A stretch of 64,000 bases of DNA from Eledone cirrhosa (taxonomy: Eukaryota), in the NCBI GenBank assembly GCA_964016885.1, contig OZ024752.1, positions 40,796,001 to 40,860,000 of the forward strand, read 5' to 3'. The notes below the pieces were generated by a model, which worked only from the letters and a program-made list of their open reading frames with translations, searched no databases and was not told the DNA's origin. The translations under genes were made by a program, and so were the position numbers. Below are positions 193 through 59,792 of the stretch, one piece after another. How positions within the stretch are numbered: the stretch's first letter is position 1; each line of letters starts with the position of its first letter.

Positions 193-679
193 AGAGAAAA
201 TTGAGGTTGGTAATGGCACATGGAATATATAAGAGACAGAATACTTTTTTGTGAAAAAACATATAATTTTATAAGGTAAGGAAATAATAAAGGGTATAAA
301 AAAGGACCGGTTTCGATGGGTCTGCAAAAGCCATCTTTTCAAATGTTGATTAATATTAAGAAAAATTAATAATACGAAGAGTTAAAATTTGAGAAAACTA
401 CTATGAAATCCCACAATGAATTTTATACTTGAATTTTCAAATCTCAAATTTTAACTCTTCGTATTATTAATTTTTCTTAATATTAATCAACATTTGAAAA
501 GATGGCTTTTGCAGACCCATCGAAACCGGTCATCTTTTATACCCTTTATTATTTCCTTACCTTATAAAATTATATGTTTTTTCACAAAAAAGTATTCTGT
601 CTCTTATATATTCCATGTGCCATTACCAACCTCAATTTTCTCTATAACCTTCGTTTTATGTAGAAAATTACACTTTTCA
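193..679 (+). mobile_element. Fold-back Penelope-like pseudo-LTR element (arms 193-394 / 442-643, 3' tail 644-679)
   Basis: About 200-bp near-perfect inverted repeat between (TA)n(GA)n and (TA)n, with an extra tail on one side and an HHR-like motif in each arm. Confidence 0.75.
489..536 (+). ncRNA. Minimal HHR-like motif, U3-A8 core variant (mirror copy about 300-347, minus strand)
   Basis: aacat-TTGAAAA-GATGG[cttttgcagac]CCATC-GAAA-CCGG-TC-atctt. Stem III is the palindrome ACCGGT; stem I is imperfect. Confidence 0.5.
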
Positions 680-784
680 TATATATATATATATATATAT
701 ATATGTAGGAGGTGAGTTTTATTGTAGTACAATAAAGCAATGCAGATTTTAAGTGTTTTTTAACCTTCATATCATGTCTTCCTG

Positions 785-851
785 TTTTATCTGATGAAAA
801 CACAAATATTATTGCATGATGATATTTGTTTTTGAAATGCGCAAAATAAAA
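785..851 (+). ncRNA. Minimal HHR, probably inactivated (U16.1 to A)
   Basis: TTTTAT-CTGATGA-AAAcACAAATATTAT[tgcatg]ATGATATTTGTtTTT-GAAA-TGCGCA-AA-ATAAAA, followed by a short tail and (TA)n. Confidence 0.75.
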
Positions 852-1912
852 TACATGGAACTCTTTTAACCATCTTTTGTTCTTATATATATATATATAT
901 ATATATATATATATAGAGAGAGAGAGAGAGGGGGAGAGAGAGACTGGTAGACAACAACATTGGAAGAGAATGTTTTAGTACTCTAGCATCCAAATTTCTT
1001 TTGACTTACATTGGTTTTCCATGAATTCTAAATTCAAATACAAACACTTTGTTAGATCCCAGTATTCATGGGAATGAGAGAAAACCTTCAGTAGAATCAT
1101 TACTATAGAGATTCATGAAAAACTGATGTATTTGCGTTGAAATAAATGAAAAGAAGTTACCATATAAAGAATATTATTACAGTAAAAGAAAAAAACCCCA
1201 CCCATTTCAGAAATTGGCGGTGATGTGGAGTTTGAAGTCGTCCATGGCGCTTTATCACGCAAAATGGCATCTCAAATCCAATTCATCATAGTTATTCTGG
1301 CTTTAAAGCTTGAAGTAGAAATTTTAAAGAAAAAACAACAACATATCGTTGCATACATTCTTCCGAATGGATTATTATATTTTCAGCCAGTTAAGACATC
1401 AAAGAGAAGTATTCGTTTTGGGAAGAATTCGCCATTTTCTTCTCTTTCCGAATACCGTTGAAAAGTTAGATGTTTAGGGAAAATTTACAAGACGATTAAG
1501 GCCAAGGACAGTTCCTAATTCATGGCAGTAGATCAAATGATCTAAACAGAATCATAATGTTTGCATCCCCGTATATATATATATATATATATATATATAT
1601 ATATATATATATATATATATATATATATATATATATATATATATTAAAATAATATATATATATTAAAATAATAATATATATAATGATATAATATAATAAA
1701 ATATTATATATTTGATATATATTCTTCCTTATCGAGCCCTCTTTGGATTTTAGTCTTCAAATATATATATATATATATATATATATATATATATATATAT
1801 ATATATATATATATATATATGTATGTATGTATGTATGTAAAAGGTAAATAGAAATAACAATACAATCGGTACAGTATATGGAAGGGATATATTATATATA
1901 TATATATATATC

Positions 1913-1966
1913 TGTTAGAACACGAAAAGTGTGAAACAACAGAATGTTCACTTTTCGTGTTCTAAC
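1913..1966. repeat. Small fold-back next to (TA)n
   Basis: tgttagaacacgaaaagtg ... cacttttcgtgttctaaca. Confidence 0.6.
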
Positions 1967-2649
1967 ATATATGCCTAGCTTCTTTAAAAATTTTTCGGGG
2001 ATAGCCGTGGTGGTGGTGATCGTATGTCATTGGCTAATTTTCAACCAATCAGAGTACCTCTCTCTATATCTCTTCCACTGTTACTTACGCCTGTTTCTCT
2101 CTATCTGTTCCGTCTCTATATATATCTCTTACTCTTTCGCTTTGCACTCCTCCCCTTCAATACCATCTCTCCCCCTCTCTATATATTTGTTACTCTATCG
2201 CTGCACGCTCCTCTCCTTCAATATATCAATCACACACGCTTTACACTCCTTTATCCCCAGCGCCCCTATATATACACCCCCCTCTCCCGCATCTATATTT
2301 TAATGTACCGTTGCACCGTGAATATATGTGTCTATATATATATACATATATATTGTATATACACATTCATGTATGTGTATACACACTCATGTATGTATAT
2401 ACACTGGTTTTGTGTGTATTGTAAATTTGTACTGTTAAAACACGAAACTAACATTCGATTGACACTTTGATTACCTGTACAGGCAATAGTTATTAGAATG
2501 CTGTTGAAGTGTGTATATATTTTTGGGGGACATCCTGTATATACACACATTATATATAATACAATAAACAGATAAATACACACATATATATATGAGCTTA
2601 TTTAATTATAAATATTGTGAATTTTTAACTCAGTTCAATTATATATATA

Positions 2650-2697
2650 AATGGCTTCTACAGGACTAGAACTGTTTCATTCGAAAGAAATCATCAT
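2650..2697 (-). mobile_element. HHR-bearing pLTR fragment (same family as 41509 and 46325)
   Basis: Reverse complement: TGATGA-TTTC[tttc]GAAT-GAAA-CAGT-TC-tagtcctgtagaagccattt, abutting (TA)n. Confidence 0.55.
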
Positions 2698-3764
2698 AAT
2701 ATTGAGAGGGGGGACTAGATAAAATATTTCAAATCAAATGTGTATAAGTTATAAGTTAAAATGTATAAATAGAGACGATAGTGGAGGTATATCTGTTTAG
2801 TGGAACAGTAGACGATAGAATTAAATACAGACGAGAATCTCCCTTTAATGAAACAGCAGACGATAGAATTAAGGCAATTTAAATTTTAAGCATTTGCATT
2901 TTTGCCTTTCATCGTTACGGGGTCGATAAAATAAAGTACCAGTAATACACTGTCACTAGACGACTTTCAAATTGAATTGTTGGTTCCATTTCTTTAGTAT
3001 TTTCAATTGTAGTTATCTACTTAAAAAGCGTTACACGGTTAGAGACATAATTCGTAAGTTATATCTTCCCTATTAAACCATTGCATTATTTCGCCTACAA
3101 TAGAACAAAAATGAAATGTTCTTTAAAGAAACAGGAATATAACTTTATAAAAAAAAAAGTTGCATCCGCTTCTTTTATCATAGATACTTTTTTCGTTTTA
3201 ATATTAATTGTTTTTTGTAGTTGTTTATATTAAAAATCTTACTGTAATATTTACTTAAACGAAGGCAAACATCTAAACTTATAGATTAATCTTGAGCGAA
3301 GGACTAGATAAATCTCTCTCTCTCTCCCTCTCTCTCTCTCTCTCTCTATATATATATATATATATATAAACGAAGAATGATAAAATTTCAAGCAAAGAGT
3401 TTAATTAGGTATATTTTGTAATATTATTAACTAATTATTATAATTAACGCGCATATTTTGCTATCCTCAAACACGTTTACACATGGCATGAAATATAACT
3501 AATCCGAGATGGCTAGGTTTCATCTTCTAACTGGATATACGAAATCCATTATGTCTTGACAACAACATGAGGTAACATTATGTTATTCACAGACACACTT
3601 TGTACACTGTTCCATATCAGAATGTATTTCCTTCGTCACATTCACAAACAGTATTGAAAATATGTTCTTCAGCAAATAAAAATGTTTTGTTCATAATATT
3701 TCAACTAGCGATTGCTCTACTCCACGCACGACCACCATAAATTAATGACCAGCTCAACACAAGT

Positions 3765-3930
3765 ATTGGTAGAGCGTCAGACACCATGCTTTGCAGTATT
3801 GTTATGGTCCTTTGCATTCTAAGTTCAAATCCTGCCGAGGTTAACTTCGACTTTCATACTTACTAATTCGATAAAATAAAGTACCAGTAATGGACTGCCG
3901 TAATGGATTTGTGCCGAAAAATAGAAACAC
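3765..3930 (+). mobile_element. Degraded tRNA-derived SINE (family A)
   Basis: B-box gttcaaatcc and core tcgataaaataaagtaccagt. A 3' fragment also lies at about 2898-2952. Confidence 0.75.
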
Positions 3931-58192: not shown

Positions 58193-58591
58193 ATTGTTTC
58201 TACTTTAGGCATAAGGCCAGCAATTACCCCAGTGTATTACTGGTATTTTATTTTATCGACCCCGTAAGGATGACAGGTAAAGTTAACCTCGGCGGGATTT
58301 GAACTCAGAATGGCAAGGGCCGTAACTCTATGCGTCAAAGCATGGCGTCCGACCCTCTACCGATACTGTCAAACCACCGTCCTTGTATTATATTACACTA
58401 TGTATTATATTACACTATTATCGGTAGAGGGTCGGACGCCATGCTTTGAAGCATAGAGTTACCTCCCTGTATGATCTGAGTTCAAATCCCGCCGAGGTTA
58501 ACTTTGCCTTTCATCCTTACGGGGTCGATAGAATAAAGTACCAGTAATACATTGGGTAATTTCTGGCCTTGTGCCAAAAGTAGAAACAATT
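58193..58591. mobile_element. Head-to-head pair of SINE A copies (58193-58380 minus, 58420-58591 plus); 3' fragment 58018-58093
   Basis: Full units in divergent orientation. Confidence 0.88.
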
Positions 58592-58654
58592 ATATTACAC
58601 TCTGTCTAGCTCTACACCTCGATACTGGCGTGAACCTAAACATCGAGTGCTCAA

Positions 58655-58938
58655 CCGAGTGAACCTACAGTAACTCCGGGTTACACTCCCTGGATATATA
58701 TATATGTATATATATATATATATATACATATATATATATATATATATATATATATATATATATATATATATATATATATATATATATATATATATATATA
58801 TGTATATATATATGTATATATATATATATATATATATATATATATATATATATATATATATATATATATATATATATATATATATATATATATATATATC
58901 CAGGGAGTGTAACGCGGAGTTACTGTAGGTTCACTCGG
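58655..58938. repeat. 40-bp inverted arms bracketing a (TA)n tract
   Basis: ccgagtgaacctacagtaactcc..acactccctgga (TA)n tccagggagtgt..ggagttactgtaggttcactcgg. Confidence 0.85.
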
Positions 58939-59008
58939 ATATATATATATATATATATATATATATATATATATATATATATATATATATATATATATAT
59001 ATATATAT

Positions 59009-59220
59009 ATTAATAAGAGGAATTCCAACTTTGTCTGATTTACTCGTTTTATTTACAATCCTTTAAAATATATATAATGGTATTATATATATTATTATAA
59101 TACCATTATATATATTTTAAAGGATTGTAAATAAAACGAGTAAATCAGACAAAGTTGGAATTCCTCTTATTAATATAATCTTCTAGACACAATCATACAC
59201 ACCCGTGTATATTTACCTAT
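59009..59220 (+). mobile_element. Fold-back element with tail (fragment also at about 10893-10945)
   Basis: Arms about 59009-59085 / 59096-59173, tail about 45 nt, (TA)n flanks. Confidence 0.75.
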
Positions 59221-59253
59221 CTATATCTATATATATATATATATATATATATA

Positions 59254-59496
59254 TAAACGTTTGTATATGTATAATAAAGCCAAAACAATTCAGGTATGGA
59301 CATAGAATAAAGAATGCAAATGCAAAAGATATTGTTGACAATTAGTCTTTCACCTTAGATTTATTTAAATGTCCTTAATTTTCGACAATATCTTTTGCAT
59401 TTGCATTCTTTATTCTATGTCCATACCTGCATTGTTTTCGCTTTATTATACATATACAAACGTTTATACCTCATTACACAATGCTTCAAGTGAACT
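59254..59496 (+). mobile_element. Fold-back element with tail
   Basis: Arms about 59254-59344 / 59375-59467, tail about 30 nt, (TA)n flanks. Confidence 0.75.
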
Positions 59497-59571
59497 ATAT
59501 ATATATATATATATATATATATATATATATATATATATATATATATATATATATATATATATATATATAAA

Positions 59572-59792
59572 TATGTTTCGTTTCTGAATTTGTTGTGGAA
59601 CCAACCAACCAACCAGAAATTTATAAATTTGTAGATTTGTAAATTTATAAATTTATAAATATATAATAAATTGAAGTGAAAGCAACTGGTGCGTGTGTTT
59701 CTTATTGGCAACATGACCCTCCCAAAGTATAACAATATATATATATATATATATATATATATATATATATTGTTATACTTGGGGAGGGTCAT
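59572..59792. mobile_element. Rearranged copy of the 12433 family
   Basis: Inverted tail tttcgtttctgaatttgtt fused to the arm; the end is mirrored across (TA)n at about 59768-59792. Confidence 0.75.

Follow-up and report, generated by a model that had tools for sequence, protein, structure and literature searches.

The window analyzed here, a 64-kb stretch of the 3.0-Gb genome of Eledone cirrhosa (contig OZ024752.1, positions 40796001-40860000), contains 42 pieces of 17 element families, which together make up 6.4 kb after removal of TA-only matches. We interpret the pieces as truncated 3′ ends of Penelope-like elements (PLEs) that stop at two fixed sites beside (TA)n tracts and were laid down by priming from both ends of a cut, with one non-coding tandem family, F, carried along as a passenger; we give this interpretation a probability of roughly 0.8. 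The bulk of the material is known PLE biology, namely truncated ends with hammerhead ribozymes (HHRs) in (TA)n, and the fold-back anatomy, the HHRs and the TA bias have already been published for PLEs. The new parts are a pairing rule, whereby a fold-back takes one arm from each of two end sites, and the footprint of PLEs on retrozymes; an earlier note made from the sequence of the window saw neither.

Families of the window are designated by letters, and comparison loci from the same genome by L-numbers. The comparison sample comprises twenty 10-kb stretches at round coordinates on 15 contigs (200 kb); motifs were counted in 19 of them (190 kb), the stretch holding an array being left out. 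Genome searches gave first-look candidates, which are not copy numbers and of which at most 40 were scored per family: I 465, C 1,270, H 1,541, A 13, F 2,128, E 1,603, D 2,633, B 257 and J 313. The families are many, as the earlier note had proposed, and multi-copy in the genome. PMC4209133, PMC8557442, PMC7229834, PMC3846280, PMC13282606 and bioRxiv 10.64898/2026.07.22.740005 are cited for parts of their text, and statements about them extend to those parts.

Truncated ends of coding elements

Most pieces are 5′-truncated 3′ ends of ordinary coding PLEs, because the genomic copies of 12 of the 17 window families are contiguous with an upstream open reading frame (ORF) for a reverse transcriptase (RT) and a GIY-YIG endonuclease. 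No PLE ORF was found in the window itself. The PLE origin suggested in the earlier note, together with the upstream extension it had named as a check, is thereby borne out. Its description of a largely non-coding system does not hold: twelve families are the ends of coding elements, and only F, a 485-bp unit that provides the retrozyme component it had also foreseen, was found to be a non-coding tandem.

A genome search with the Pfam GIY-YIG domain yielded 10,597 first-look candidates, of which 150 were scored, and the long ORFs recovered carry both RT and GIY-YIG. Pfam found RVT_1 plus GIY-YIG on three of six proteins scanned, and the 814-aa frame upstream of family I (L370/L270) is similar to HTH_animal/GIY-YIG clusters with a score of 0.98. 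By motif, the ORFs behind families A, N and P are of the Zn-linker (Neptune/Nematis) type, those behind C, G, H, I, J, K and T are Hydra-like, and E and O lead to two other PLE ORFs. The DKT motif, a CxCX5C linker and CxxC/CxH, with no CCHH, were read directly in the translations of L370 and L194. The ORF and untranslated region (UTR) of L370 together exceed 3 kb, and the Hydra-like frames as read have incomplete N-termini. A CX2-5CxxC linker with DKG, present in L042, L044 and L045, fits Neptune or Nematis alike by motif.

As described for endonuclease-bearing (EN+) PLEs, a type I HHR in the pseudo-long terminal repeat (pLTR), an inverted 5′-truncated copy and a one-sided tail are all present. 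A partial tandem was seen in family A only (L127/L171 and L169), and the tail of L127 runs directly into the start of the next ORF. Several 3′ UTRs hold long TA, CA or TG tracts of their own, so that the elements also carry microsatellite in. Fold-backs long enough for an ORF on one or both arms occur at L047, L056, L166, L194 and L362.

Two end sites and the pairing of arms

The anatomy given in the earlier note, an inverted arm followed by a forward arm and a one-sided tail, is confirmed, with tails of about 35-110 nt. Each family has two 3′ end sites that lie 35-110 nt apart; measured from the core, sites 1 and 2 are at +99/+188 in family C, +193/+253 in E, +98/+190 in B and +103/+198 in H. 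Six families provided 71 distinct fold-backs, 13 unclassifiable and 58 classifiable, and 57 of the latter combine one arm from site 1 with one from site 2, the tail end (binomial p = 2 × 10⁻¹⁶ against 0.5). The site-2 arm lies wholly inside the tail, with no sequence common to the other arm, in nine of these 57, as at 705-885 of the window. In eight, as at 42797-43109, it is the tail-less site-1 arm that extends further upstream, by more than 20 nt.

Competing models exist for the origin of inverted copies with a tail. Hairpin self-priming on an antisense template, which a section of PMC3846280 proposes for rotifer Penelope, or the snap-back of a single cDNA would explain the small palindromes and re-copied bits found at many junctions, as well as the similar reach of both arms in 33 of the 57 paired fold-backs. 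Hairpin self-copying is excluded, however, for those fold-backs in which the arms share no sequence or the tail-less arm is the longer, both window examples included. The arms of array L172 both exceed 2 kb, which neither direction of snap-back allows, and those of L183 differ at position 343. Self-priming is thus unlikely as the general origin. The pairing rule and the non-overlapping arms favor two-ended priming instead, and two cDNAs, one primed at each end of the cut, are the likely source of arms that do not overlap. PLE activity in vitro cuts and extends both strands, and two start sites on the RNA bound the tail (PMC11167929); the pairing rule ties the genomic structure to these two start sites.

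According to the two-ended mechanism, a double-strand cut by the PLE endonuclease in a (TA)n tract would leave 3′-OH ends, each of which would anneal to a UA tract of 2-7 nt at site 1 or site 2 of the element RNA. Each end would then prime its own cDNA on that RNA. Both cDNAs would usually stall after 50-300 nt, and their head-to-head joining would generate the inverted arm, the forward arm and the one-sided tail. The new ends would lie in TA, where later PLEs would pile up.

The inverted arms and TA flanks also recall miniature inverted-repeat transposable elements (MITEs) or other DNA transposons with terminal inverted repeats that insert at TA. The fold-backs lack the symmetric fixed termini and fixed internal length of such elements: the inner boundary varies freely, the tail makes the ends asymmetric, many copies consist of a single arm, and long copies continue into RT plus GIY-YIG ORFs, which makes this origin very improbable. 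Inverted duplications are a known assembly artefact and the sequence is AT-rich and repeat-rich, but chance motifs or assembly fold-backs are hardly credible given seven hammerhead motifs against 0.08 in shuffles, none in exact-pattern controls, ends at family-specific sites on many contigs, and arms that differ by 2-15%.

(TA)n tracts as targets

The (TA)n fields are landing sites of these elements, as the earlier note had inferred for part of the microsatellite fields. A (TA)4 lies within 24 nt of the 3′ end in 35 of the 42 PLE pieces. The figure for randomly placed positions of the window is 15%, and for the 3′ ends of short interspersed nuclear elements (SINEs) it is 1 of 17, a comparison that bears on the enrichment check proposed in that note. 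Among three informative empty-site comparisons, two show pre-existing TA tracts that are longer after insertion; in the third, about 120 nt of TA are present at a point where the sister SINE copies lack it. A search for insertions that split known host repeats found none, and a search for flank pairs returned 5 rows from 505 blocks, two of them self-matches.

The fields probably grow through this use, and synthesis of TA by the RT is a possibility. A more far-reaching scheme, which we consider conceivable but doubtful, would involve a dimeric PLE enzyme. Bound to a single RNA signal that contains two priming sites, the enzyme would extend the two ends of a severed (TA)n tract and, on starting, add further TA repeats in the manner of telomerase; circular retrozyme RNAs would parasitise it and be rolled into arrays of 10-22 units. 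If true, PLEs and retrozymes would be a main engine building (TA)n fields, leaving approximately 4 × 10⁵ hammerheads in this 3-Gb genome.

Chains of PLE ends from different families, each placed in the TA run that ends the previous one, were observed at L027, L064, L410 and other loci.

A tandem ribozyme family as a probable passenger

Family F is represented in the window by a partial unit and elsewhere in the genome by 485-bp head-to-tail units in arrays of up to about 12. We recorded 76 full units, 466-490 bp long; the HHR that each unit contains is type I and of the minimal kind, with palindromic stem III and a long stem II. Cleavage is predicted after monomer position 195. RNAfold models show the expected stem I and long stem II and pair two copies with each other; they are silent on catalysis. 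The longest stop-free frame spans about 110 codons across the unit junction, and no PLE-protein match was found inside the arrays. The 23-mer of the F core has 1,209 exact matches genome-wide and its reversed control none; the 5′ core box, which lies outside the search pattern, is 99% conserved, compared with 83-89% in the outer monomer.

The ends of F were analyzed at 44 loci, taken from the first 100 matches of the 23-mer on contig C1 in chromosome order, with one already-examined array left out. Of 66 3′ ends, 36 fall at positions 275-279 and 24 at 369-391, and 54 have TA flanks. Eighteen fold-backs were found, of which 15 pair both sites, one uses site 1 twice and two are disrupted; in a set of young F copies, 7 of 9 fold-backs pair both sites. 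As the arrays stop at two fixed sites in (TA)n of the kind seen in the PLE families, mobilisation by PLEs is indicated, and F is likely a non-LTR retrozyme (one without long terminal repeats), a non-autonomous passenger copied in trans by PLE enzymes, as judged from these sequence features. Such an element would keep its hammerhead and both priming sites and be copied as multimers, and for the tandem units cleavage in dimeric form is predicted, by way of the palindromic stem III. The 5′ ends of 4 of 23 young F arms, one of them query-selected, lie at monomer position 1-2, which hints at a linear start; for the 44 loci the figure is 7 of 66 at positions 1-6, at least two of these being alignment artefacts.

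F might instead be a pLTR-derived satellite, in which one truncated PLE insertion per locus was followed by local unequal crossover, a model discussed in a part of bioRxiv 10.64898/2026.07.22.740005. The units within an array are indeed near-identical, and in 4 of 18 multi-unit loci a private variant is common to all units. The arrays, however, start at arbitrary monomer positions and end exactly at two sites; inversions fall within arrays and leave multimers on each arm; different chromosomes carry units identical to one another, with a distance of 0 in 10 loci; and no F copy among 58 loci leads into an ORF. Local crossover is therefore an improbable origin, and the trans-mobilised passenger is preferred.

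Relatives of F, 63-69% identical to it, retain the core and have altered stems. One of them, 69% identical, has a different palindrome and the same site-2 end, and a second shows a spacing of 483-486 bp at two loci. An unrelated tandem family, encountered in the sampled stretches and not present in the window, has a unit of about 468 bp with an internal TA tract and 17,440 exact matches of a 21-mer. Its array at L456+L395+L457 (contig C22, ~11,998,600-12,009,300) contains 22 units, each with a hammerhead, and an inverted arm; four further fold-backs, read by eye, end at two sites. The footprint of F and of this second family is sequence-level evidence that would place non-LTR retrozymes among the cargo of the PLE machinery.

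Long target-site duplications of compound microsatellites around F were considered and rejected as a general rule: at least 10 informative bases are shared at 4 of 57 loci, and in 2.4% of the 3,192 cross pairs. L186 may be a case of such a duplication. Among 166 distinct substitutions in F units, T>C (42) exceeds A>G (14) on the ribozyme strand, for which editing of the opposite strand of a fold-back RNA may be a candidate cause. One low-depth contig carries many T>C changes, which are compatible with alleles or other copies.

Weighing the interpretation

Several points count against the reading of two-ended PLE priming with F as passenger. The 33 paired fold-backs with arms of similar length fit self-priming equally well. 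The fold-back loci were taken as the best-scoring matches to window copies rather than at random, and for B and I a fold-back was present in the query itself. The short UA tracts (2-7 nt) at the start sites were read by eye only, without a control, and the initiation site of Poseidon PAc is not homologous to the cut DNA (PMC11167929). Three of the six scanned ORFs had no Pfam match, the clades were assigned by motif and not by a tree, families B, M and Q are unlinked to an ORF, D is weakly linked, and I and J are linked at one locus each. Low-stringency searches among the fetched loci for an autonomous PLE partner of F recovered F relatives only.

The mover of animal retrozymes has so far been argued from co-occurrence and phylogeny. 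Two unrelated tandem families with a PLE-specific footprint and base-level start sites define both an RNA and a target for in vitro assay.

Hammerhead motifs in the window and genome

The hammerhead motifs are real. A strict minimal-HHR scan of the window gave four matches (8660-, 12590+, 42893- and 43853-), whereas 25 dinucleotide shuffles, the control named in the earlier note, averaged 0.04 and never exceeded 1; allowing one core mismatch gave five, against 0.12-0.16. A wider descriptor, broadened after the families had been seen, found seven complete motifs by adding 13443+, 45512- and 45726+, against an average of 0.08 over 100 block shuffles, none of which gave more than 1. With Watson-Crick stems required, only two motifs were found. 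Shuffle means over all three descriptors were 0.03-0.16, with a maximum of 1. Among the best 150 of 566 matches, an Rfam scan returned microsatellite-driven miRNA and snoRNA models, no hammerhead, and nothing at the gathering score.

All eleven full or near-full cores listed earlier are recognisable. Those at 8660, 12590, 42893 and 43853 are clean, and those at 13443, 45512 and 45726 carry one core substitution each, which most family copies do not have (the family F core reads CTGAYGA in 77 of 82). The remaining four fail every descriptor, yet the HHR families they come from are multi-copy. The core at 494+ and its mirror at ~344- are of the U3-A8 type, with a stem I of only 2 bp, U16.1 is changed to A in the window copy at 791+, and stem II is damaged at 9057-. 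The 3′ halves reported earlier likewise belong to families with full cores elsewhere, as found for 2650, 41509 and 46325 (family J), the five copies of family G, 13010, 40730, 21565 and 22840. The half at 58114 is unconfirmed, since no 5′ core was seen among the four loci matched, its own place included.

The motifs had been described as minimal HHRs with a palindromic stem III, which is true of part of them: families D, G, J and K can form a stem III of 4-5 bp, and four (A, G, P and that of L060/L027) have U3-A8 cores. In family K, position 4 is a conserved A (CAGAAGA) and stem III has 4 bp, and the same holds for three motifs of the sampled stretches. Self-cleavage of the motifs is a prediction from their structure, and most hammerheads of the window are likely inert debris.

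Hammerhead density is a property of the whole genome, and the idea that the window is unusual is not upheld. The wider descriptor found 24 motifs in the 190 kb sampled, about one per 8 kb, against 0.35 in shuffles, from which approximately 3.7 × 10⁵ motifs are extrapolated genome-wide (Poisson range 2.4-5.6 × 10⁵). The sample holds 82 pieces in 200 kb compared with 42 in the 64 kb of the window, which therefore has 1.6 times as many pieces per kb with intact cores no more frequent. Family-matching pieces cover about 6% of the sample and 10% of the window, and runs of (TA)10 or longer 3.0% and 8.2%, respectively; simple repeats are abundant in the window. The earlier estimate of density stands, at about one HHR-derived piece per 2.5-3 kb. 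The extrapolated load suggests that PLE debris is a sizeable and easily misannotated part of the genome.

Relation to known systems

The portions of PMC4209133 drawn on here describe minimal type I HHRs in the pLTRs of EN+ PLEs, with a palindromic stem III and an extra base after A9, and the U3-A8 core in Schistosoma. The elements analyzed here share these features, along with many families per genome, mostly single truncated copies, and opposite-strand pairs 100-700 bp apart. They differ from that account in the stem III of 4-5 bp in several families, in the A at position 4 of family K, and in number, with about 4 × 10⁵ motifs extrapolated here against 2,000-9,000 minimal HHRs in Schistosoma, coelacanth and Xenopus, counted with different descriptors. 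The tails of 35-110 nt are also longer than the published 30-40 nt.

L370 and L194 share with the Hydra clade, as presented in excerpts of PMC8557442, the DKT motif, the CxCX5C linker, CxxC/CxH flanking the endonuclease end, an HHR and (TA)n insertion; in contrast to that account, the elements here appear longer than 3 kb, with 3′ UTRs of 1.2-1.6 kb and thousand-copy families. Poseidon PAc of Anolis (PMC11167929) has in common with them two RT starts bounding the tail, cutting and extension of both strands, and AT-rich targets. That system was studied in vitro, with no strand difference in start site and no target homology, and its main text contains neither the one-arm-per-site rule nor non-overlapping arms.

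Metazoan non-LTR retrozymes, in the sections of PMC7229834 and bioRxiv 10.64898/2026.07.22.740005 consulted, are non-coding tandem units with one type I HHR each, in dispersed arrays that co-occur with PLEs, as family F does. The 485-bp unit lies above the 170-400 nt of the former and inside the 51-972 bp of the latter, and its HHR is of the minimal PLE type, which the preprint admits. In those sections, mobilisation by PLEs is argued from co-occurrence, shared features and pLTR phylogeny. With respect to an insertion footprint, the word 'inverted' occurs 0 times in the main text of PMC7229834 and 'tail' 0 times in that of the preprint, supplements being outside this scope. Neither those sections nor the literature searched yielded a description of such a footprint. 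The open literature searched contained no cephalopod retrozyme and no PLE two-ended priming rule; subscription papers, Repbase/Dfam and supplements may hold either. An octopus repeat annotation of 2026 lists 31 recently active PLE families, with no discussion of ribozymes in the part cited (PMC13282606).

Elements of the window

The pieces are given below with their coordinates in the window.

198-675, both strands: family A fold-back with an inverted arm (198-394), a forward arm (393-640) and a tail that ends at 675; U3-A8 core 494+ and mirror ~344-
705-885, both strands: family B, inverted tail tip 705-747 head-to-head with forward arm 750-885; core at 791 with U16.1 mutated; arms without shared sequence
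1704-1760, + strand: family K tail tip
2645-2696, - strand: family J HHR fragment
8322-8534, + strand: family G fold-back, centre inside HHR stem II, 3′ half only, plus tail
9300-9484, 23000-23218, 24056-24273 and 33382-33574 (the last on the - strand): other copies of family G
8565-8901, both strands: family C-related element; the long arm (-) includes the complete HHR at 8660, and 8805-8901 is the tail arm (+)
8941-9119, - strand: family D 3′ end, HHR core at 9057 with damaged stem II
10894-10942, + strand: family N 3′ tip
12437-12848, both strands: family E fold-back with 60-nt tail, complete HHR at 12590
12903-13063, both strands: family K fold-back with HHR 3′ half
13166-13303, - strand: family T 3′ end with short fold-back
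13321-13706, + strand: family F, positions 1-386 of the 485-bp monomer, HHR core at 13443, ending at site 2
21565-21674, + strand: family D, HHR 3′ half
22841-22914, - strand: family C, HHR 3′ half
23602-23686, - strand: family K 3′ tip
40070-40205, - strand: family P 3′ tip, downstream of the U3-A8 HHR of a 938-aa Zn-linker PLE (L042)
40363-40866, + strand: long family K 3′ end in which a deletion covers the 5′ core
41509-41637, + strand: family J, truncated inside the 5′ core; another fold-back at 46323-46469
42797-43109, both strands: family C fold-back; the site-1 arm (-) is long and includes the complete HHR at 42893, and the site-2 arm (+) is short (42981-43109), with an 89-nt tail
43758-43921, - strand: family H 3′ end, complete HHR at 43853
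45416-45824, both strands: family I fold-back, an HHR in each arm (45512- and 45726+), this copy without tail
58093-58184, + strand: family M, possible HHR 3′ half, unconfirmed
59011-59226, both strands: family N fold-back with tail, too short to reach the HHR
59256-59495, both strands: family O fold-back with tail, matching 0.47 kb past the ORF in L052
59592-59734, + strand: family E 3′ tip
59771-60020, - strand: family Q piece

The ORFs behind these families lie at different distances. The Zn-linker RT plus GIY-YIG ORF of family A ends 1.0-1.2 kb upstream of the window-matching stretch at five distinct loci (L122/167, L124/128/166, L127/171 and L169, with L135 shorter), and family N matches 0.42-0.48 kb past the ORF in L045, L046, L049, L055, L056 and L040/41. 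The ORF of family E ends about 0.2 kb upstream (L273, L362, L364 and L365), and that of family T lies 0.2-0.33 kb upstream at four distinct loci. Hydra-like ORFs are found 1.3-1.5 kb upstream in family C (L194 and L193/L072), 0.55 kb upstream of the match in K (L191 and L046), upstream in H (L197/L117 and L199), at one locus in J (L459/L415), and in G together with a full U3-A8 HHR (L197 and L097); the 814-aa frame of family I is uninterrupted and lies 1.2 kb upstream. Family D is preceded in L303 and L322 by a decayed, frameshifted endonuclease-like remnant only, to which tblastn gave no confirmation. No ORF link was found among the genomic copies of family B followed upstream or among the loci examined for family M. 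For family Q, an apparent link proved to be a nested insertion, and no other was found.

Other repeats

Tandem arrays of 200-bp units of a tRNA-like SINE, which we take to have the look of an octopod element, occupy 15513-16426 and 16599-17154 (4.6 and 2.7 units) in opposite orientation, and more SINE fold-backs lie at 11222-11815, 22000-22133 and 58193-58590. Their mechanism is probably different from that of the PLE pieces, because SINE 3′ ends have no association with TA (1 of 17). The RT end of a long interspersed nuclear element, presumably RTE-like, is present as two fragments (43145-43667 and 52492-53157) that are 95% identical, with a 5′ inversion. A recent local duplication of about 0.6 kb (22911-23540 and 23953-24615, 99% identical) includes family G and an inverted 27-nt tail tip across a TA run. 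The fold-back at 4479-5449, with 220-nt arms (99%) flanking 531 nt, matches none of the window families. Further TA-flanked repeats, unassigned to a family, lie at 6886-7045, 10074-10231 and 58597-58693, and another lies at 32670-32828; the type at 32670 recurs 0.33 kb past a Hydra-like ORF in L056.

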